This document shows, in pieces, positions 12,998 through 57,402 of a stretch of DNA of 64,000 nucleotides. The DNA is taken from contig CAZIFJ010000001.1 in assembly GCA_964538235.1 (NCBI GenBank), forward strand, positions 31,348-95,347. The letters are read 5' to 3'. Made by a program: the position numbers and the translations under genes. The stretch comes from Candidatus Woesearchaeota archaeon (GTDB taxonomy: Archaea; Nanobdellota; Nanobdellia; Pacearchaeales; GW2011-AR1). The notes beneath the pieces were generated by a model that saw only the letters and a program-made list of their open reading frames with translations, searched no databases and was not told where the DNA came from. Positions within the stretch are counted from its first letter, which is position 1; every line of letters begins with the position of its first letter.

Positions 12998-13205
12998 TTA
13001 TTTCAAACTCTCCTCAATAATCTTAATTTCTTCTTCATTCAATCCATATAACTTATACACTTCTTTATCAATTTCATAATCAATATTCTTTATCTGTTGC
13101 TCCAATCTTTCTTTTTCGTTCCCTGTTGGATTTGTTTCGTGAAGTTGTTTTTGAAGCGAGAGCATTTTATCAACGAGAGAAACTATTTTTTGTTCTTGTT
13201 TGGAA
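12998..13205 (-). pseudogene. Orphan C-terminal fragment (~68 codons) paralogous to the 3' end of the type IIG RM gene
   Basis: About 90% nucleotide identity to 14534..14741. It encodes ...KIVSLVDKMLSLQKQLHETNPTGNEKERLEQQIKNIDYEIDKEVYKLYGLNEEEIKIIEESLK*. There is no upstream body or start. Confidence 0.6.
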
Positions 13206-13946: not shown

Positions 13947-14537
13947 TTATTTTTTATTAATAATCTCATCATAGCTTCTCAACCAATTTCCAAATAAAAA
14001 CTTTCTAATTATTTCTAAGAAATTTCCTCCATCGCTCTTTGGTCTTGAGATCCAATTATATAAAACCATTAAAAATAAAATTAAAGAAATAATGAATACA
14101 ACTGGAGCTAAAAATATAATCTGCTCTCCATATGTTTCAAGAGAGTTTCTGTCCAAAATAAACCAAAAAAGATAAACATACATTAAAAATATAAGTATCA
14201 AAATTATTTCTGCAAGCCATTCAGTTCTGAAAAAAGGCAATCTTCCTATTTCATTTTTTAAATCAGGCCCCTTTATTCCATTATCAAATATTTTATACAT
14301 TAAACTTTTTTTCTGTCCCAAAGATTCTATCATAAGAATACAATAGAATAAAACAAAAAGTCCCAAAATCGACATAATAAAATACATTGGTCCCAGATTG
14401 GATTTAGAAGGCCATACCTTAAATAAAATCCATAAAGAAAAAGCAACTCCTACTGAAAAAACTGTCCAAATAAGAAAGTTACAATTTTCTGCCGAATCTC
14501 TGATTTTTTCATATTTCAACATTATTTCTTTATTCAT
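13947..14537 (-). CDS. Four-TM membrane protein, translationally coupled downstream of the RM gene
   Basis: Its start overlaps the RM stop by 4 bp. There are multiple hydrophobic helices. Confidence 0.5.
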   Translation of the reverse strand: MNKEIMLKYEKIRDSAENCNFLIWTVFSVGVAFSLWILFKVWPSKSNLGPMYFIMSILGLFVLFYCILMIESLGQKKSLMYKIFDNGIKGPDLKNEIGRLPFFRTEWLAEIILILIFLMYVYLFWFILDRNSLETYGEQIIFLAPVVFIISLILFLMVLYNWISRPKSDGGNFLEIIRKFLFGNWLRSYDEIINKK

Positions 14538-17503
14538 TTCAAACTCTCCTCAACAATTTTAATCTCTTCATCATTTAACCCATATAACTTATACACTTCT
14601 TCATCAATTTCATAATCAATATTTTTTATCTGTTGCTCTAATCTTTCTTTTTCGTTCCCAGTTGGATTTGTTTCGTGAAGTTGTTTTTGAAGCGAGAGCA
14701 TTTTATCAACTAAAGAAACTATTTTTTGTTCTTGTGATTTTTTCGGGAGACAGATTGGAAATTTCTCAATGAATCTTTTTGCATAAGAATAGTATCCTCC
14801 CCTAAATCTCGTGCTAATGTTTTTTAAATAAAATTCTAAAGTTTTGGAATTAAGTAATCCAAGAAGCAGTTTATATTTTTCTTTAAATTCTTCTTTCAAA
14901 ATTATTCCATAACCTCCAGCATTTCCACCCCCGACAAAATAATATTCTCCATTTTCATCCAACACAAATTTGTTTGAATTAGAAAGAACTTGCGTCATAA
15001 TCTTTTTCTTCTTAAATTTATCAATGTTTTGCGTTCTACCAAACTTATACCAATTTTTATCTTCGTTAAATCTGTTTTCTTCTCTCGATTTAAGTTCTTT
15101 CTCATAATCTTTCAAGTAATGATAAAAATTTGGATATTTTGATTTTATAATATCTAATTGAATTAAACTGGCTTTATCTTGGGATAGATCATAAGGATAA
15201 AGAACAGAATATCCTTCCCAATTTACAGACCATTTTCTTATTTCTTTTCCCTTAAGTAACTTTTTAATAATGCTTTTTTCAATTTTATATTCTTTATCCT
15301 TCAGATTATTTTTTACAATAAAATTATCTCTTTCTTCTTTAATTATTTTAACAAAATAATATCTATCTGCTCCAGTAATCATTCCCTGAAAAATTGCTTC
15401 AGCGATATTATTTAATCTCAAATCTATTTTGTCAAATTTTTGAAATATTTGAGAGCTATTTCCATCTGAAAAACTCCAAGTTAAATCTGAAACAGGTATT
15501 TTCTGCTCAAAACAAATTAAATTATCTTTGTTTAAAATTCCTTTATTTAACTTCATTAAATTTTTAGGAGTACAATAAAAAAATCGTGTATTATCTTCTT
15601 TATCCAAGAACAACAAGCAAGTATATGTTGTTGCATTTTCAAAAATTTGGTAATCTTTAAAATCTACTATTTCTTTAATTGCCTTATTTTTAGATATATA
15701 ATTTCTTAGATTTTTTCCATAATCTGCACTAAAGAATTTATTAGGCAATATATAACCCAATCTCCCATTTTCTTTCAATATTTTGTGACCCCTTTCTACA
15801 AATAAAATATAAATGTCATAATTCTTTTCTGGAGACTCATACATTTTATTAAAATAATCAACATCTTTTTTATTTAATGTTTGTATTCTAACATAAGGAG
15901 GATTCCCAATCACAACATCAAAACCTCCATTTCTAAAAACATCTGGAAATTGTGCGTGCCAATTAAACGCTTTGTCGCCTGCGATTTTGCTGTCGTCAAT
16001 TAAAGAATTTCCATTTTTTATATTATCTCGTAAGTTAGGTAGAAGGCGTTTATGAGTGTCTGGTGTTTCTTCTTCTAATATTTTCAATAATAAATTAAGC
16101 TGTGCTAACTCAACAGCTTTCTCATCTAAATCAACTCCATAAATACAATTTGACATAATAGATGCTTTTTGCCCCAAAGTAAGTCTATCTTTATAGAATT
16201 GGAATTGCGTGCTTTTTGCTTTCTCACCGCTTTTCAATTTTTGCTCAATTGTATTGCATAATTCTTGAAAAGCGCTCATAAGAAAACTCCCGCTTCCGCA
16301 AGCAGGGTCAACAATATTTACTTCTAAAATTTCATCAATTGTTTTATTTTTAATATATTCTCCTACTGTGTTCTTAACAATATAATCTACAATATAAGAA
16401 GGAGTATAATAAATTCCCATCTTTTTTCTCTTCCCAGTTTCAGATTCTAATTTAACTCTTTTCTCAGTGCTCTGAAGAATTGTTCCAAGATATTGTTCAT
16501 AGATGGTGCCCAATAAATCGCCAGGAATTTCATCAAACATATATCTTTCTTGAAAATCTTTTTTTCCAAAATACAAAATTCTAATAACTTCTTGAAGAGT
16601 ATTATCGTCAAAAAAGATATTTTTCTCATCTTCTAAAATACTTTTAGCGAATAATTTTGAATTATATTGTTTGTCAAAAATCAAAAATTGCTCTTCTAAA
16701 ATATCCCATATTCTCTTATGGATTCTCCCTTCTCTAAAATCTTTTACAATGCCTAAAAGAAAGTTTTTGTTTTCTAAACCTCTATCTTCAACAGAACGCA
16801 TAAAAATTAATCTATCTATTAAAATTTGAACAGCTTCGTCTATTTGTTCCTGCGATAAATATGCTCTTAATTTTTTTATGTCCTTTGAAAGCAATTCTCT
16901 AATATATAATAAATCTTCTAAAATACTTTCATCAATCGGCTTTGAAGCTTTCTCGTCTTTTTTAGAAAGTAATTCATAAATTTTTCCGTTTTCAAAACTT
17001 TCTTTTGATAACAACCAAAGCTTATCAAAATTATCTAAAAATTGCTCAAAAACCAATCTAAAATAACTTTCTCCAAGTTTTAATAAATTTTTGTCTATAT
17101 TTTTAATGTTAGTTAATGCATGGTATACTCTAATTTCTTTAAAATTAATTAAAACTGCAAATTTAATTTTTCTGTGATAAGCATAAGAAACCGCTTGTCT
17201 TCCTTCATCTTCGCTTAAACGAACAGAGGTTTTCTTAGCTTCAATAACTAATACTTCTTCGTTTCCAATTTTTAAAATATAATCTGCTCTTCCTTTCAAA
17301 ATACGAGTTTCTTTTTCAATGTCTTGCCTTTCCCACCCTAAAAGTTCAAACAATGGCTCAACATAATTCCACTTTACCCACTCTTCATTTTGGCTGTCAA
17401 TATAATCTTTATTTTTACTAGCTTGAGAAAACTGCTCAATTAATTCCTTCAACTTCTTCCTTGCTTGTTCTTTTGTCACCATATATTTCATAAAATAATT
17501 CAT
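14534..17503 (-). CDS. Type IIG restriction-modification enzyme (N-terminal PD-(D/E)xK nuclease, gamma-class N6-adenine MTase, C-terminal TRD)
   Basis: 989 aa. It has GRADYIL...VIEAKK (nuclease), VDPACGSGSFL (SAM motif I) and VIGNPPY (motif IV). Confidence 0.85.
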   Translation of the reverse strand: MNYFMKYMVTKEQARKKLKELIEQFSQASKNKDYIDSQNEEWVKWNYVEPLFELLGWERQDIEKETRILKGRADYILKIGNEEVLVIEAKKTSVRLSEDEGRQAVSYAYHRKIKFAVLINFKEIRVYHALTNIKNIDKNLLKLGESYFRLVFEQFLDNFDKLWLLSKESFENGKIYELLSKKDEKASKPIDESILEDLLYIRELLSKDIKKLRAYLSQEQIDEAVQILIDRLIFMRSVEDRGLENKNFLLGIVKDFREGRIHKRIWDILEEQFLIFDKQYNSKLFAKSILEDEKNIFFDDNTLQEVIRILYFGKKDFQERYMFDEIPGDLLGTIYEQYLGTILQSTEKRVKLESETGKRKKMGIYYTPSYIVDYIVKNTVGEYIKNKTIDEILEVNIVDPACGSGSFLMSAFQELCNTIEQKLKSGEKAKSTQFQFYKDRLTLGQKASIMSNCIYGVDLDEKAVELAQLNLLLKILEEETPDTHKRLLPNLRDNIKNGNSLIDDSKIAGDKAFNWHAQFPDVFRNGGFDVVIGNPPYVRIQTLNKKDVDYFNKMYESPEKNYDIYILFVERGHKILKENGRLGYILPNKFFSADYGKNLRNYISKNKAIKEIVDFKDYQIFENATTYTCLLFLDKEDNTRFFYCTPKNLMKLNKGILNKDNLICFEQKIPVSDLTWSFSDGNSSQIFQKFDKIDLRLNNIAEAIFQGMITGADRYYFVKIIKEERDNFIVKNNLKDKEYKIEKSIIKKLLKGKEIRKWSVNWEGYSVLYPYDLSQDKASLIQLDIIKSKYPNFYHYLKDYEKELKSREENRFNEDKNWYKFGRTQNIDKFKKKKIMTQVLSNSNKFVLDENGEYYFVGGGNAGGYGIILKEEFKEKYKLLLGLLNSKTLEFYLKNISTRFRGGYYSYAKRFIEKFPICLPKKSQEQKIVSLVDKMLSLQKQLHETNPTGNEKERLEQQIKNIDYEIDEEVYKLYGLNDEEIKIVEESLK

Positions 17504-17540
17504 ATTTATAGATTTGTCTTATTGATTAAACTTTCTTAAT

Positions 17541-17652
17541 GTCACGAACGTTAAAACCTCGCCTTTTAAGGCGAGGCGTTCGTGAGCATCCAAAAAACAA
17601 GCACCGAACAAACCACGGCTTTTAAGTCGTGGTGGTGCATTGTTTTTTTGAT
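17541..17652 (+). repeat. GC-rich composite hairpin element, copy 1 (hairpin A + spacer + hairpin B + T7)
   Basis: Hairpin A is GTCACGAACG-TTAAAA-CCTCGCC-TTTTAA-GGCGAGG-CGTTCGTGAGC, then ATCCAAAAAACAA, then hairpin B GCACC-GAACAAA-CCACGGC-TTTTAA-GTCGTGG-T-GGTGC, then ATTGTTTTTTTGAT. It is repeated at 24950 and 56796. Confidence 0.75.
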
Positions 17653-23254: not shown

Positions 23255-24112
23255 ATGAAATTCAAAAAAGTTCATGGGATAGGTTTGTTTGTTGGAGCTA
23301 TTCTGTTAGTATTAGATATAATTTATTTTACAGAAGAAAAAATATTTAATTTTATTCTAGGAATTTCTATTTTTATTTCTATTTTGCCTTTTATTATAGA
23401 AATAAATTTAGAAAATAAAAAAGAAAAGGAAATAAGTACAATGTTTTTAGAATTTTCTAGAAGCCTATCCGAAAGTGTTACAACAGGAACACCAATAAGT
23501 AAAAGTATAATAAACATGAAAAAGAAAAATTTTGGGGTTTTAACTCCACATATAGAAAAATTAGCAAATCAGATAGAAATAGGGATTCCTGTTCATCGCG
23601 CTTTACAAAATTTTGCATACGAAGTTGACAGCCCAACAATTAAGAGAGCAGTCGCCTTAATCAGAGAAGCAGAAAGGGCTGGGGGGGAAATAGATTATAT
23701 TCTTTCTTCTGTCGCAACTTCTATTTCAGATGTACAAAAACTTAAAGAAGAAAGAAAGGCTATGATTTATAATTTGGTTGTTCAGGGATATATAATATTT
23801 TTCATTTTTATTGGAATTATGTTAGTAATGGAATTTAAGATTCTTCCTTTAGTCTCTGACTTAAATGGTTTTGGAGGATTTGATTTATCTTCCATTCCAT
23901 CTACAACAGAAGAAAATTCCTCGAGCAATTCGAATTTAACACCCCAAGATTTAGCAACACCATTTTTATTATTATTATTATCTCAGGGTATTTTAGCAGG
24001 GTTGACCATAGGAAAATTAGCAGAGGGGAGCATAATTTCGGGTATCAAACACTCTTTTATATTATCAATGACTGCTTTTCTAGTATCAACCGGCGTTAGA
24101 GCGTTTTTCTAA
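23255..24112 (+). CDS. Pilus platform membrane protein, part 2 (TadC-like, T2SS-F domain)
   Basis: A TM, then a cytoplasmic helical domain, then TMs. It is 1 bp after part 1, so the platform is split as in bacterial Tad systems. Confidence 0.6.
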   Translation: MKFKKVHGIGLFVGAILLVLDIIYFTEEKIFNFILGISIFISILPFIIEINLENKKEKEISTMFLEFSRSLSESVTTGTPISKSIINMKKKNFGVLTPHIEKLANQIEIGIPVHRALQNFAYEVDSPTIKRAVALIREAERAGGEIDYILSSVATSISDVQKLKEERKAMIYNLVVQGYIIFFIFIGIMLVMEFKILPLVSDLNGFGGFDLSSIPSTTEENSSSNSNLTPQDLATPFLLLLLSQGILAGLTIGKLAEGSIISGIKHSFILSMTAFLVSTGVRAFF

Positions 24113-24885
24113 TTTTTAATTATATAAAAAACTTCATTTTCTCTTTTTTCAATTTTAAAATAATATCCCAATCTGTTTAAAATTTTTTCAAACCATATTC
24201 TTTCTGGTTTTTTCATAGGTTTTCCAGAAATTTTTTTTGTGGGAAAGCTGACTATAAAATATTTACATTTTATATTTTTAAGTAAATTTTCCGCAATTTT
24301 ATGTCCTTTTTCTTCTATAATGTCTAACAATTTTAAAAGTAAACACAAATCTACTTCAGGCAAATCTAAACCGCCCTTTCTTATATCATAAAAGAAAGTT
24401 TCTCCTTCTATTTTATTTTTCTCAAAAAATTTTTTCATAATTTTAAGTTCATCTTCTTTAATATCTGAAGCATAATATTTAATTCCTCTTTTTGCAACTG
24501 CAATCGGATTCAATCCGCATCCTAAATCAAGAATAGAGCTCGGATCAAGCCCATAAATTATTTTTTTAACATCATCATAAATTTCAATTCTTTCTCTTGT
24601 TGATTTGTGAGTTTTCAGCAAATCATTTATTTTGTCTTTTTCAAGAAACTCATCTCGTTGTTTATTATTTCCTTGAAATCTTCCAGTATACTTTCTTAAT
24701 TCAGCTCTTATTTCTTTAATTATTATTTTTCTTTCTCTTTTTTTTAAATTATCTAAATAAATATTATTTTTTCTCAAATATTCATTAATTAGCTCATTTA
24801 TTAAAATTTCAGAAACTCCAGATATTTCCCTTTTTCTTTTAATTTCCTCAATAAGATTTTTCATATAATTTTTTTCTTCACTCAT
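24109..24885 (-). CDS. ArmA/Rmt (FmrO)-family 16S rRNA (guanine1405-N7) methyltransferase homologue
   Basis: LLKTHKSTRER, ILDLGCGLNPIAV, FIVSFPTKKISGKPMKK and WFEK match ArmA LLKIHSSTNER, ILDFGCGFNPLAL, FVISFPIKSLSGKEKGM and WFES as I recall them. 258 aa. Confidence 0.6.
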   Translation of the reverse strand: MSEEKNYMKNLIEEIKRKREISGVSEILINELINEYLRKNNIYLDNLKKRERKIIIKEIRAELRKYTGRFQGNNKQRDEFLEKDKINDLLKTHKSTRERIEIYDDVKKIIYGLDPSSILDLGCGLNPIAVAKRGIKYYASDIKEDELKIMKKFFEKNKIEGETFFYDIRKGGLDLPEVDLCLLLKLLDIIEEKGHKIAENLLKNIKCKYFIVSFPTKKISGKPMKKPERIWFEKILNRLGYYFKIEKRENEVFYIIKN

Positions 24886-24949
24886 ATTCTAACAGAGTTT
24901 TTAATTATAAAAATTTGACGTATAGCAAAAGAATTAGATAATTCTTCAT

Positions 24950-25112
24950 GTCACGAACGTTCAAACCTCGCCTTTTAAGGCGAGGCGTTCGTGAGCACAG
25001 AAAATCTTTTAGATTTTCTGTTCAGAAAAGACTTACATCTTTTCTGCATCCAAAAAACAAGCGCCGAACAAACCACGGCTTTTAAGCCGTGGTGGCGCAT
25101 TGTTTTTTTGAT
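24950..25112 (+). repeat. GC-rich composite hairpin element, copy 2 (A + two extra AT hairpins + B + T7)
   Basis: It is the same as copy 1 but with a 50-nt insert, CAGAAAATCTTTTAGATTTTCTG/CAGAAAAGACTTACATCTTTTCTG, which is two more hairpins. The B stem is GCGCC/GGCGC, compensatory to copy 1's GCACC/GGTGC. Confidence 0.75.
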
Positions 25113-25176: not shown

Positions 25177-25878
25177 ATGAAAAGAGGAGCAAGTCACGTT
25201 GAATTTATAATATCAAGCATTATGTTTATTAGTTTTGTAACTTTTATTTTATTTTTATTTAACATCCAAGAAAAATCCAACCCTGCAGAATTTTTATCAG
25301 AAAATATTTTCAATTCTTTAAAAGAAAATTCATCTGTCAATGTAGAGTATTATTATGTTTCTATAGATTTAACTGCAGTTAATAATAAACCATCAATTCA
25401 AGTTTCTTTAAACAGCATGCCAATAAATAATTTTGTCAGAGTAGAAAATTACTCTGGAGCAGTTTTACCATCAAAACTTGATGGTAATAATATAAAAATA
25501 GAACACTTAGATAATAATTTAATTATAATAATGCTTAGCGAAGATTTTCTTCCATTTAGTGGAAATGTAAATTCAGATTTTTCCAATTCCGGTTATTCAA
25601 TCATCTCTTCCAATTCAGAAAGAATTATTTCAGAAAAAAGAATTTTAAAAATAGAAGACTTATATTATTTAGATTACGTTTCTCTCAAAAAAAATTCATT
25701 CAAGCTCTTGGGTAATTTAGATTTCTTGTTCAAATTAGAATTTTTCCCTTCTAATTTTATAGAAGCAAAAATGAATATTCCTGAAGGGGTTGACATTTTT
25801 TCTCTTAATGAAAGAATTTTTGTTTTAAGATCCGATGGAACTAGAGCATCTGCTGATATGGAGGTAAAAGTATGGTAG
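25177..25878 (+). CDS. Class III signal peptide (pilin-like) protein
   Basis: MKRGASHVEFIISSIMFISFVTFILF. Confidence 0.6.
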   Translation: MKRGASHVEFIISSIMFISFVTFILFLFNIQEKSNPAEFLSENIFNSLKENSSVNVEYYYVSIDLTAVNNKPSIQVSLNSMPINNFVRVENYSGAVLPSKLDGNNIKIEHLDNNLIIIMLSEDFLPFSGNVNSDFSNSGYSIISSNSERIISEKRILKIEDLYYLDYVSLKKNSFKLLGNLDFLFKLEFFPSNFIEAKMNIPEGVDIFSLNERIFVLRSDGTRASADMEVKVW

Positions 25879-42185: not shown

Positions 42186-42280
42186 AAAATTTGAATTATA
42201 GCCACTTATTTATAGATTATTATAGAGCAGTTTGAATATAGTAACCCAACTTGGTCTTTCAGTTTTTTCTGTTGGTTTAC

Positions 42281-42390
42281 TACTTCAAAAACCTTCTCGT
42301 CGTAGGTTTTTGAGGCACTCAAAAATCTCTGATTTTTGATGTTAGCGGAGCAACTAAAAGCCACAGAAAAATATAGTTGGTCTGCTATAA
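42281..42390 (+). ncRNA. Structured RNA candidate, family 2 copy 1 (three consecutive hairpins)
   Basis: Hairpin 1 is CTTCAAAAACC/GGTTTTTGAGG, with a G·U that is valid only on the + strand. Hairpin 2 is TCAAAAATC/GATTTTTGA. Hairpin 3 is CAACTA/TAGTTG. The paralogue at 55221 has compensatory changes in hairpins 2 and 3. Confidence 0.55.
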
Positions 42391-42458
42391 TTCAATTTTT
42401 AAGAAAGAATTTTCAAACTTCTTATTAAAGAACTTTACAAAAATCAAAGTTCTCTATA

Positions 42459-46508: not shown

Positions 46509-46663
46509 AGCCTCTAAGGGGATTTGAACCCCCGACCCCGAGTTTTTTTGTCTGACAAAACCAAGGTTTTGTCAACGCCCGTAGAACTTCTTTCCACGGC
46601 GGCTTCAATTCTGAAGAAATTGAAGCTTACGAAACTCGTACTCTACCGCTGAGCTATAGAGGC
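46509..46663 (-). tRNA. tRNA-Thr (anticodon CGU) with a ~84-nt intron in the anticodon loop
   Basis: Reverse-complemented the sequence is GCCUCUA-UA-GCUC-AGCGGUA-GAGU-A-CGAGU-UUCGUA, then the intron, then A-ACUCG-GGGUC-GGGGG-UUCAAAU-CCCCU-UAGAGGC-U. The intron contains two hairpins. Confidence 0.75.
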
Positions 46664-54651: not shown

Positions 54652-55197
54652 ATGAAAAAACTTATGTCTCAGGAAGAAATTGAAAAAAAACAAAAACGTT
54701 TGACTTCAATATCAAGTATAGTTTTACTTTTAATTTTAGTTATTAGCACAATAGGTTTTGCATTCATTTCAAATCCATTTATATCTAATGAAAAAGAAAT
54801 TCCAGAAAAAAAAGTTTATGAAAACAATGGCTTTTGGTCTTTCAAATTCGGAAATCAAGAAATTTCTTTAATCTCTTCTCCAGAATCACTTTCAGATATT
54901 CAATTAAATTTTTCCTTAACTTTAAATGATTATTACAATCAGCCATTATACATTGATTCGTCAGACGAATTAATAACAAGAGAAATTGGTTCATCTTTAG
55001 GTTTATACACAACAAGAGCTCAAGAAGCCTGTTTTGGAGAATGTGAAAGAAACCTCCCAGAAAAAAATTGCTCATCTAATTTAATCATCTTCAAAGATAA
55101 AAATCAAAGTTTAGTTTATCAACAAGATAAATGTATTTTTATTGAAGGAGACATAAAATCCACTGACGCATTTTTATACAGATTATTTGGAATATAG
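54652..55197 (+). CDS. Hypothetical membrane-anchored secreted protein
   Basis: 181 aa with an N-terminal TM segment. Confidence 0.45.
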   Translation: MKKLMSQEEIEKKQKRLTSISSIVLLLILVISTIGFAFISNPFISNEKEIPEKKVYENNGFWSFKFGNQEISLISSPESLSDIQLNFSLTLNDYYNQPLYIDSSDELITREIGSSLGLYTTRAQEACFGECERNLPEKNCSSNLIIFKDKNQSLVYQQDKCIFIEGDIKSTDAFLYRLFGI

Positions 55198-55220
55198 TCA
55201 ACCAATTAAATTCTTTGGCT

Positions 55221-55332
55221 AGTTGACTACTTCAAAAACCTTCTCGTAGTAGGTTTTTGAGGCTCTCAAGAACCGTGGTTCTTGACGTTAGCGGACCAAA
55301 AACAGCTGAAAGATTTATTTGGTCTGCTATAC
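55221..55332 (+). ncRNA. Structured RNA candidate, family 2 copy 2
   Basis: The 5' 45 nt and GTTAGCGGA...GGTCTGCTATA are conserved with copy 1. Hairpin 2 is TCAAGAACC/GGTTCTTGA and hairpin 3 is ACCAAA/TTTGGT, both compensatory versus copy 1. Confidence 0.55.
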
Positions 55333-55439
55333 AATAATTATCTTTACGTTCACGCGCTTTTCAAAAAACTAATAATGTCATCGAAGAAAAATATTTTCCT
55401 AAATAGAAATATTTAAAAGATAAAGCTCCATTTTTTAAT

Positions 55440-56791: not shown

Positions 56792-56795
56792 TTAT

Positions 56796-56884
56796 GTCAA
56801 GGAACTTGACTCCTTGAGCATCCAAAAAACAAGCGCCGAACAAACCACGGCTTTTAAGCCGTGGTGGTGCATTGTTTTTTTGAT
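56796..56884 (+). repeat. GC-rich composite hairpin element, copy 3 (short A-variant hairpin + B + T7)
   Basis: GTCAAGGAACTTGACTCCTTGAGCA is an A-variant with the same GTCA..TGAGCA flanks. The B hairpin then has GCGCC/GGTGC, the G·U intermediate. It is in the same orientation as copies 1 and 2. Confidence 0.75.
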
Positions 56885-57402
56885 CTTTTTATTTCTCTCC
56901 AAATATTTTTAAAATCACTATAAACAGGAATTTCTTTTATTTTAAATAAATAAACATTTCCAAACCAAACACATATAACTAAAATCGTGCTTATAACATA
57001 CCAAAATACTTTATGTGTAATGTCAAAATATTCAAAGCCATTAATCAGCAAAATAGAAAAAATAATTATTCTAATTATATTAAGTAAGAAAAATCCCCCA
57101 ATAATAAATAATAAACTATTAATTCTTTTTCTAATTTTCATAGGTGTTGTCAAATTTAAAATTAACAATAAATAATATGCCGCCCCTGCAACACATGCCT
57201 CAACTATTTCAATTGAATAATCTTTGATAATTAATGTAACAGTTTCTTTTACAATTTCAACATTATAAAACAGCTCTAAAATAAAATAAGAAACATATAA
57301 AGTCAATGGCTCAAAAATTAAATAAATAAAATAAAGACTATTTATTCCTAAAATTAAAGCAAAAAGATATCTTAAAAAAATAAATAAAAATTTATTATTC
57401 AT
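56854..57402 (-). CDS. Polytopic membrane protein; last 9 codons read through the hairpin repeat
   Basis: 182 aa with about 5 TM helices. The C-terminal RSKKQCTTTA is encoded by the reverse complement of repeat copy 3. A weak exosortase/archaeosortase-like idea is not supported. Confidence 0.45.
   Translation of the reverse strand: MNNKFLFIFLRYLFALILGINSLYFIYLIFEPLTLYVSYFILELFYNVEIVKETVTLIIKDYSIEIVEACVAGAAYYLLLILNLTTPMKIRKRINSLLFIIGGFFLLNIIRIIIFSILLINGFEYFDITHKVFWYVISTILVICVWFGNVYLFKIKEIPVYSDFKNIWREIKRSKKQCTTTA

Follow-up and report, generated by a model that had tools for sequence, protein, structure and literature searches.

Three hairpin repeats of a Woesearchaeota-like archaeon as probable non-autonomous elements of the IS200/IS605 family

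The question raised by this locus is what kind of sequence is represented by three similar, GC-rich, hairpin-forming repeats that lie within 64 kb of a genome of 28% GC. The window (the whole 64-kb stretch of DNA analyzed here, numbered from its first letter) belongs to a DPANN archaeon of the Woesearchaeota/Nanoarchaeota type. It carries archaeal genes, including those for the termination factor FttA/aCPSF1, Rad50/Mre11, the primase small subunit and an archaeal CCA-adding enzyme, and also encodes an S-layer protein, a pacearchaeosortase and a tRNA gene with an 85-nt intron. A preliminary description, made from the letters of the window, had noticed the repeats and left their identity open between a small RNA gene, a terminator or insulator, and a mobile element of the MITE or REP type.

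The three copies were placed by that description on the + strand at 17541–17652, 24950–25112 and 56796–56884, and these coordinates are exact. Each start (17541, 24950, 56796) is the G of a GTCA and each end is the T of a TGAT, and these limits coincide with the element boundaries derived independently from approximately 64 unique copies elsewhere. No fourth copy was found in the 64-kb window with a profile built from 47 relatives; the density in the window is 3 per 64 kb, or about 47 per Mb. On the + strand, the 20-mer of the right hairpin ("hairpin B" of the preliminary description) has three matches and the 20-mer of hairpin A two, each with 0.00 expected from shuffles, and the 17-mer spacer has three matches with 0.35 expected. 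Only one to three positions differ among the window copies in the 66-nt right module, which runs from CATCC to TGAT. All three copies share the same strand, and at other loci the strands are mixed.

Copy 2 (24950–25112, + strand, 163 nt) is the long form and displays all parts, i.e., left module, two-hairpin middle module and right module. Outside the element, at 24946–24949, the tetranucleotide TCAT occupies the position of the target and left cleavage site. The left module (24950–24997), defined by folding and by covariation in 47 copies, has the lower stem TCACGAACG/CGTTCGTGA and closes with GCA. Its 5' internal loop is TTCAAA, of which the last four nucleotides, CAAA (24962–24965), stand at the left guide position discussed below, and its upper hairpin is CCTCGCC-TTTTAA-GGCGAGG (24966–24985). 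The optional middle module (24998–25047), bounded by GCA...GCA microhomology, folds into two hairpins at about 24997–25021 and 25023–25046, as had been claimed for this 50-nt insert. The right module (25047–25112), defined by fold and covariation, opens with CATCC and has a lower stem of 14 bp with one bulged A (25052–25065 with 25094–25108), an internal loop GAACAAA with CAAA at the guide position (25069–25072), an upper hairpin CCACGGC-TTTTAA-GCCGTGG (25073–25092), and the terminal TGAT (25109–25112) at the position of the right cleavage site. All of these parts of copy 2 are on the + strand.

Copy 1 (17541–17652, +) is the canonical short form of 112 nt, with the left flank TAAT at 17537–17540 and the right module at 17587–17652. 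The left hairpin module is common to copies 1 and 2, in keeping with the modular build first proposed. Copy 3 (56796–56884, +) has 89 nt, with the left flank TTAT at 56792–56795 and the right module at 56819–56884. The upper left hairpin is deleted in this copy, and a short hairpin stands in its place between the conserved GTCA and TGAGCATCC; comparison with the family identifies this short hairpin as a deletion derivative of the left hairpin (GTCAAGGAAC-TTGAC...).

The gene contexts given in the preliminary description also hold. Copy 1 lies between a divergent type IIG (Eco57I/MmeI-like) restriction-modification gene on its left (14534–17503, − strand) and a thioredoxin-reductase-like gene. 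Copy 2 lies between a divergent FmrO-family rRNA methyltransferase-like gene on its left (24109–24885, − strand) and an orphan ORF. Copy 3 is convergent with a pacearchaeosortase-family gene (56854–57402, − strand), to which it supplies the last nine codons (SKKQCTTTA) and the stop.

The repeat is not confined to this genome. A search of related genomes, proposed earlier as a check, found further copies in metagenome-assembled genomes (MAGs) and in metagenomes: the 20-nt core of the right hairpin is present in seven contigs from five other species-level Woesearchaeota/Nanoarchaeota MAGs (CAZOFF01, JAUSKH01, CAYZSY01, CAZXWV01 and CAZOCP01), and a slightly degenerate core in 96 metagenome stretches. 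Groundwater and sediment are the main sources of these stretches, and the matches frequently fall at the ends of contigs. Loci were fetched by the exact right-hairpin core, so the invariance of this core is there by construction, which does not apply to the conservation of GTCA, TGAGCATCC and TGAT. After removal of duplicates, 64 full elements with flanks were analyzed. Element length ranges from 85 to 240 nt, and the canonical form has 118–123 nt. It begins, after T(T/G)AT, with GTCAAGGAAC - TTGACAGAAAA - CCACACC TTTTAA GGTGTGG - TA - GTTCCTTGA, continues with G CATCC - AAAGCACGAGTGCC - TGTCACAAA - CCACGGC TTTTAA GCCGTGG - T, and ends with GGCAC A TCGTGCTTT - TGAT, so that a subterminal hairpin with a TTTTAA loop is found at each end. 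The optional two-hairpin module sits between GAGCA and (G)CATCC, as it does in copy 2; it is present in 11 of 70 full elements elsewhere (those of at least 140 nt), and homologous modules occupy the same position in L013, L015, L023, L029, L030, L088, L100 and other loci. Other variants include deletions of the upper left hairpin, hairpins nested in hairpin loops, flipped right modules and orphan left modules.

The neighbors of the copies are unrelated housekeeping genes, including those for SMC, deoxyhypusine synthase, TFB and DisA. No protein family recurs beside the element in an all-against-all BLASTP comparison of 569 ORFs from the loci, and viral contigs gave 0 matches to the right-end and left-end patterns. 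At one locus (L009) a full and a partial copy adjoin a gene for a 267-aa Phage_integrase. That recombinase gene suggested an integron attC or Xer site as a candidate, which was rejected on the unrelated neighbors of the other loci. In its general form, the idea that the repeat is a recombination site for a tyrosine recombinase, attC-like or Xer/dif-like, draws on this adjacency and on the upper hairpins, which, with inverted arms of 7 bp on either side of a conserved spacer of 6 nt (TTTTAA), look like a core site. The adjacency, however, concerns one of approximately 100 loci, and neither a cassette array nor attC core sites (GTTRRRY) were seen; this reading is extremely improbable.

Homology among the approximately 64 unique copies breaks off sharply at GTCA on the left and at TGAT on the right. 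The tetranucleotide that precedes GTCA is TTAT in 76% and TGAT in 17% of the 64 copies, and TAAT and TCAT are rare; a T stands two positions before ATGTCA in every copy (100%). The right terminus is TGAT in 64/64 copies, a count for which the extraction pattern itself required T[TC]TGAT, and this end is backed independently by the empty-site comparison described below and by the profile search. There are no terminal inverted repeats, as the first 12 nt and the reverse-complemented last 12 nt of the 64 copies match at 4–8 positions, mostly 4–7. Target-site duplications had been put forward as a further check; the identity between the flanks is at chance level for k = 2–8. Because AT both precedes GTCA and ends the element, in 64/64 copies, the boundary is ambiguous by 2 nt, and the ends can also be written as AT[GTCA...TG]AT, which would correspond to a duplication of the 2 bp AT. 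Such ends would be left by a classical cut-and-paste MITE whose DDE transposase duplicates this dinucleotide, but a MITE would be expected to have the terminal inverted repeats that are missing here, and neither the covariation of guide and flank nor the identity of the right hairpin with that of IS200 elements (both described below) would be expected of it. Such an origin is highly unlikely.

An exact empty site shows how the element sits in its target. Presence/absence polymorphism, another check that had been advised, was found for copy 3 in a related genome, on a contig (L118) that carries a pacearchaeosortase homologue of 76% identity. The empty site reads ...AAATAATTATTTTTTCTTAAAGAATTC... 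and is colinear with the window after removal of 56796–56884: ...AAAGAAATAATTATTTTTTCTTAAAGAATTC... on the L118 contig stands against ...AAAAAGATAATTATTTTTTCTTAAAGAATTC... in the window without the element, and the stretch contains both TTAT and the ancestral TAA stop. The tetranucleotide TTAT is present in the empty site and so pre-exists the insertion, in which no bases were gained or lost. The repeat is a mobile element that inserts directly 3' of a fixed tetranucleotide. For copy 2, the neighboring protein (233 aa) has no homologue among 5.8 billion proteins, so that no empty site could be obtained from there.

Insertion has consequences for the genes involved. Homologues of the pacearchaeosortase end with ...IKK/IKR, exactly where the element-encoded tail SKKQCTTTA begins, and excision of copy 3 in silico yields ...EIKR-TAA, which restores the ancestral stop. 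In the TTAT that flanks copy 3, TTA represents the ancestral TAA stop of 56854–57402, read on the other strand. The same arrangement, with the TTA of TTAT as the reverse complement of the TAA of a convergent ORF (ORFs of at least 80 codons were counted), occurs in 11 of 64 copies, against 1 and 2 in the other two frames, and these stop-codon insertions account for the recurrent 31-nt and 16-nt overlaps between genes and elements. Codon 2 of the gene for the CCA-adding enzyme is followed by the element in two further loci (L044 and L056), and the ORF stays open through it; the orthologue in the window (31641) has no element, and deletion of the 114 nt leaves the frame intact. Rickettsia palindromic elements (RPE) and enterobacterial repeats of the RU/ERIC type are likewise small palindromic mobile repeats that are found in frame inside genes and add peptides to proteins, by a mobilization mechanism that may differ from that of the present element. 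In the present family, such peptides form the N-terminal part of the CCA-adding enzyme (L044) and, at stops, C-terminal tails.

The preliminary description had drawn attention to compensatory changes in the stem of hairpin B, with GCACC/GGTGC, GCGCC/GGCGC and GCGCC/GGTGC in the three copies. These stems are as stated and are part of a covariation that extends throughout the family. In 31 aligned right modules, with the structure specified by hand, 98.3% of the cells are paired and 10 of 21 pairs show double changes; this degree of pairing was reached in 0 of 500 shuffles, and no slid register comes close to it. For the left module and the upper right hairpin, 13 of 28 predicted pairs show double changes in 47 canonical copies. 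To judge from these substitutions, the pairing of the stems is evidently under selection. The same description had taken G·U pairs as a mark of the + strand being the folded one, which is not borne out: over both modules G·T pairs number 15 and A·C pairs 10 (p = 0.42), and folding is as good for one strand as for the other (z = −13.3 and −11.9). Since G·T is not significantly more frequent than A·C and the strands fold alike, the wobble pairs do not identify the folded strand. Of the proposed selection on RNA or single-stranded DNA structure, the selection on pairing stands, and the RNA part is unneeded, because single-stranded DNA hairpins of the kind that Y1 transposases recognize explain the pairing.

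These results bear on the reading of the repeat as a multicopy gene for a small structured RNA, running from (A)TGTCA to a final hairpin with a U run. GC-rich hairpins in a genome of 28% GC, covariation in the stems, and an oligo-T at the 3' end that could terminate archaeal transcription would all suit such a gene. The flanks upstream of the copies are, however, unconserved, and no shared promoter travels with them. There is no match in Rfam 15 at the gathering score, the best being 30 bits against 80 and the others weak and at chance level. Copies occur in every gene orientation and inside coding sequence, where they are translated through on the opposite strand, and their modules are freely deleted, nested and flipped. 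With the excess of G·U over A·C also lacking, a small RNA gene is very unlikely. An H/ACA, C/D-box or K-turn RNA was considered as a specific candidate and rejected, as the internal loops of the window copies are one-sided and have no ACA or box motifs, and Rfam gave no match. A sigma-70-like match lies upstream of copy 2, which is irrelevant in an archaeon.

A role in transcription of the host has more to say for itself. Under this reading the repeat would be a bidirectional terminator or insulator, a strong hairpin between A6 and T7 runs that would halt the archaeal RNA polymerase arriving from either side and that is retained for that function. Beside a very stable stem, the window copies do carry runs of T7 (+ strand) and T6 (− strand), copy 3 lies between convergent genes, and compensatory changes preserve the long lower stem, which a transposition model does not require. 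Archaeal intrinsic terminators are runs of at least 5 T that close a transcription unit. The T7 is found in the three window copies, but most members of the family have T4–T5 at this 3' position and lack a T run on the opposite strand, and copy 3 alone is at gene 3' ends. Elsewhere copies stand between divergent genes (10 of 41 with both neighbors scored), between tandem genes and inside ORFs. With mostly T4–T5, all gene orientations and insertions inside ORFs, a terminator role is not the reason for the existence of the family. Nor would it account for the abrupt limits of the element, its constant flanking tetranucleotide, the empty site or the agreement with IS200 ends, with which it is compatible only as a secondary exaptation. 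As a primary explanation this host function is unlikely. The hairpin and U7 of the preliminary description followed bacterial logic for promoters and terminators, which is inapplicable because the genome is archaeal, and the long T run is unconserved in the family; what survives of that proposal is a possible secondary effect of the three copies in the window.

The enzymatic affinity of the element is indicated by transposase-bearing relatives. A scan of all ORFs of the fetched loci with a TnpA-like query gave one strong match, in L037 (metagenome contig Ga0172370_10209186). This contig and L121 (SRR22387926_1730512) encode a 130-aa Y1 transposase (Y1_Tnp, PF01797, 1e-38). Approximately 30 nt past the stop of the transposase gene, both carry AAACCACGGCTTTTAAGCCGTGG, which is identical to the right hairpin of the element, its 5' A-tract included. 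Upstream of the gene in L037 is the left hairpin ATGACCA-GAAAA-CCCCGGGGC TTTTAA GCCCGGGG-ATGAA-TGGTCAT, which has the same build as that of the element: lower stem, GAAAA loop, GC hairpin with TTTTAA loop, and 3' loop. The left target of the two relatives is TTAT or CTAT. They differ from the element by the transposase gene itself, by the right terminus TCAT (guide GAAA), which in L037 lies 10 nt after the hairpin according to the guide rule and the comparison with L121, and by contigs of 38–46% GC; their host is probably not the same archaeon.

The element itself was met without its enzyme. No Y1 transposase is encoded in the 64-kb window or in approximately 620 kb of element-bearing loci, except for L037, and no transposase gene with the exact family ends was found in any archaeal contig searched. 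What the fetched loci contained instead of an autonomous copy (left end, gene, right end) were modular variants, right modules in flipped orientation and left ends standing alone. Homologues of the L037-type transposase number 2597 at E ≤ 1e-10, and nine distinct transposase-bearing elements were fetched; an archaeal host for this clade was not found among them, as those relatives that could be judged (L106, L107, L122) are bacterial, L108 and L123 are ambiguous, and the names of the clusters pointed to Dependentiae only.

How such elements choose their target has been worked out for IS608. There, the left site TTAC goes with the guide AAAG and the right site TCAA with the guide GAAT, the guides being the 4 nt located 5' of the foot of each hairpin; the left site lies beyond the element at a distance of 19 nt from the foot, and the right one within it at 10 nt (PMC3201880, PMC5934647). 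The published pairing of T-4 with A+17 (PMC5934647) joins the first base of the site to the second base of the guide. At the corresponding positions of the present family the usual left guide is AAAA, and the right guide is CAAA in 30 of 31 aligned right modules (TAAA in L050). In the remaining part of the IS608 pattern, site base 2 pairs with guide base 1 and site base 4 with guide base 4, and A stands opposite A at position 3, an arrangement that fits both published pairs of site and guide. By this rule the right guide CAAA predicts TGAT, which is the terminus observed, and the left guide AAAA predicts TTAT, which is the usual flank.

The rule also follows the variation within the family. 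Of the eight copies with the left guide CAAA, six follow TGAT, whereas this flank is found in 5 of 47 copies with other guides (Fisher p = 3.7e-4); in the reverse count, the association is 6/11 against 1/40 (p = 1.6e-4). A base of the element thus changes in concert with one of its flank, over sites of independent insertion, which is the mark of a target chosen through the guide. For all nine transposase-bearing elements, too, the rule predicts the ends. In L037 the left guide AAAA gives TTAT and the right guide GAAA gives TCAT; in L121 AGAA gives CTAT and GAAA gives TCAT; in L106 and L107 AAAC gives TTAG and GAAG gives TCAC; and L108, L110–L117, L120, L122 and L123 have the left site TTAT and the right site TCAC. 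The ends of the L110–L117 element are fixed by five independent insertions and those of the L106/L107 element by two. Copies 1 and 2 of the window deviate at position 2, with TAAT opposite the guide AAAA and TCAT opposite CAAA, such that base 2 of the flank is identical to base 1 of the guide and not complementary to it; these two copies may be immobilized.

Taken together, the three repeats are very probably non-autonomous elements of the IS200/IS605 family, i.e., palindrome-associated elements of the PATE type in which IS200-like ends are fused without a transposase gene. PATEs are defined by the lack of inverted termini, palindromes of the IS605 type near the termini, lack of target duplication and a length too short for a transposase (PMC3119063). 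The present element has no terminal inverted repeats, has hairpins at both ends, generates no duplication (apart from the 2-bp AT ambiguity) and is too short to encode the enzyme. Of the identities first proposed, that of a mobile element is retained and narrowed to an IS200/IS605-type PATE; the terminal inverted repeats and target duplication of a classical MITE are absent, and the hallmarks of REP/BIME repeats, a palindrome of 20–40 nt with a conserved tetranucleotide tag on its 5' side and a single-copy Y1 gene between such repeats, were not seen in the fetched loci. Several observations go against the PATE reading, among them the lack of a transposase gene with the family ends in the archaeal contigs searched, the deviation of copies 1 and 2 from the guide code and the AT ambiguity. 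In addition, the right site is 20–22 nt from the hairpin foot, against 8–10 nt in the IS200 relatives, and the covarying 14-bp right lower stem corresponds to no known requirement of TnpA and would compete with the pairing of guide and site.

The proposed mechanism starts from these ends, which have neither inverted termini nor target duplication and bear a subterminal TTTTAA-loop hairpin each. The element lies directly 3' of T(T/G)AT, which is retained as the left flank, and has TGAT as its other terminus, and the 4 nt located 5' of each foot show complementarity of the IS608 type to the left-flank tetranucleotide and to the right terminus. Up to this point the sequences themselves are the evidence. 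By analogy with IS608, a Y1 (HUH) transposase supplied in trans would bind both hairpins on the single-stranded top strand, the guide bases would position the cleavages, and the top strand would be excised as a circle and, in a "peel and paste" manner, joined to single-stranded DNA on the 3' side of a new TTAT or TGAT. Copies would then persist at tolerated sites, such as the space separating two promoters (copies 1 and 2) or the inner edge of a TAA stop (copy 3), where the element would provide a short C-terminal tail and a new stop.

Compared with IS608 and other IS200 elements (PMC3201880, PMC5934647), the present element is alike in its subterminal imperfect hairpins, the left-flank tetranucleotide, the internal right site and the 4-nt guide pairing pattern, with a left site about 16–21 nt 5' of the foot. 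It differs in having neither tnpA nor tnpB, in the distance of the right site (20–22 nt from the foot instead of approximately 10), in lower stems that enclose the guide loops, and in the target, TTAT/TGAT instead of TTAC. PATEs and MITEs of the IS200/IS605 family are already known in bacteria and haloarchaea. The PATEs of Haloquadratum walsbyi and other haloarchaea (Dyall-Smith et al., 2011, PMC3119063) share with the present family the lack of terminal inverted repeats and of duplications, IS605-type palindromes near both termini with no room for a transposase, many copies per genome, core deletions, and small repeats nested in the palindromes. The host here is, however, a member of the DPANN/Woesearchaeota with 28% GC and not of the Halobacteria, and there is no sequence relation; haloarchaeal PATEs are related mostly to the IS1341 (TnpB) type, whereas the ends described here match the IS200 (TnpA-only) type. 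The present family adds the long covarying lower stems and the optional two-hairpin middle module. A woesearchaeal genome is among the archaeal genomes most densely populated by MITEs, with 105 per Mb (PMC11602168). A literature search found no published description of the present Woesearchaeota element family.

Two conserved genes flank an inverted doublet of the identical hairpin in four loci that do not look archaeal (L032, L086, L090, L092). Such doublets resemble REPINs, and a REP/BIME-like repeat handled by a domesticated RAYT, which belongs to the same enzyme superfamily and uses the same hairpin logic, would be an alternative to a remnant of an insertion sequence. The distinct left and right ends, the fixed external tetranucleotide and the internal right cleavage site are nevertheless those of an insertion sequence, and the element is composite, with 89–240 nt as opposed to 20–40 nt. 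No repeat-flanked RAYT or Y1 gene was seen in the fetched loci, and the nearest enzyme-bearing relatives are ordinary IS200 units of approximately 0.7 kb with several independent insertions. A RAYT-handled repeat is very improbable, and the IS200/IS605-type PATE is preferred.

A more far-reaching idea is that the PATE family has been exapted in the compact genomes of DPANN archaea, as insulator, terminator, RNA structure or source of new protein termini, and that it takes part in exchange between the domains, even in trans-mobilization, with bacteria. It is suggested by lower stems that are kept by compensatory change beyond the needs of TnpA and by the oligo-A and oligo-T flanks of the window copies; the hairpins and guide code match those of IS200 elements met so far on bacterial-looking contigs only, which would imply recent exchange between DPANN archaea and co-occurring bacteria, or even trans-mobilization. 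This extension is speculative and in all doubtful.

The element family reveals no new kind of system. Its value lies first in a well-delimited repeat that can be annotated in the genomes of Woesearchaeota and related DPANN archaea, where it can be mistaken for small RNA genes or terminators and where, given the many matches at contig ends, it breaks assemblies. It reshapes proteins in reduced genomes, by short tails at TAA stops (the 11 of 64 copies) and, in one case, by read-through at the N-terminus of an essential enzyme. Finally, the family constitutes a natural experiment on the guide code of IS200/IS605 elements, in which, over independent insertions in wild populations, the change of one guide base from A to C goes with the change of the target from TTAT to TGAT.

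In some copies of the PATE (palindrome-associated transposable element)-like repeat, the right module, one of the two hairpin halves, is inverted relative to the left one, as in the comparison loci L098 (approximately 850-965, - strand) and L077 (4629-4780, + strand), and in several hairpin loops TTAAAA takes the place of TTTTAA. Taken together, the inverted modules and the altered loops suggest flip inversions at the DNA level, which the hairpins would mediate. Other copies are enlarged by nesting: at L072 (264-437) and L029 (9594-9810), the upper hairpin on the left side has further hairpins of the CATCAAGAA...TTCTTGATGG type inserted within its loop, resembling the small mobile repeats that target the PATE palindromes of Haloquadratum (PMC3119063). 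At four orthologous loci (L032, L086, L090, and L092), which belong to a different organism of non-archaeal appearance, a C_GCAxxG_C_C gene and an esterase gene flank a REPIN-like doublet, formed by a hairpin identical to the element's, AAACCACGGCTTTTAAGCCGTGG, and its loop-flipped partner CCACGGCTTAAAAGCCGTGG.

In copies 1 and 2 of the window (17541-17652 and 24950-25112, + strand), the second base of the tetranucleotide preceding GTCA (A at 17537-17540 and C at 24946-24949, respectively) is the same as, not complementary to, the first base of the guide, i.e., the 4 nt located 5' of the hairpin foot (A and C, respectively), and the same identity is found in L102. It may be due to chance, or these copies may have been immobilized. 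Downstream of copy 2 there is an ORF of 233 aa (25177-25878, +), which at E <= 1e-10 matched only itself among 5.8 billion proteins.

Three further features were noted in the window. A second repeat family has two intergenic copies (42213-42395 and 55160-55340, + strand) of about 170-180 nt with 82% identity, which contain the hairpin CTTCAAAAACCT...AGGTTTTTGAGG and gave no match in the Rfam search; its hairpin part is also carried by L006 and L034, and the family may represent either a further kind of mobile repeat or a gene for an RNA. The type IIG restriction-modification gene (14534-17503, -) has its 3' end duplicated downstream of it, as a direct repeat of 200 nt with 94% identity (13000-13199 and 14536-14735); the repeat at 13000-13199 may be what is left of a gene, or a silent cassette encoding an alternative specificity domain. 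A tRNA gene (46509-46663, -; Rfam 50.5 bits), missed by ARAGORN in bacterial mode, is interrupted at the position of the anticodon loop by an archaeal-type intron of 85 nt.

In L009 (5650-5853, -), only 3 nt separate a full element from a second one that has the left module only; both elements are directly upstream of a divergent tyrosine recombinase of 267 aa (Phage_integrase), and small ORFs, an intron-containing tRNA and a nucleotidyltransferase/HEPN pair lie downstream. In L044 (2977-3090) and, with the same sequence, in L056, the element follows codon 2 of the CCA-adding-enzyme gene, whose ORF stays open across the reverse strand of the element and gains 38 codons. Apparently, this essential enzyme either carries an N-terminal insertion encoded by the element or is translated from a putative alternative start.
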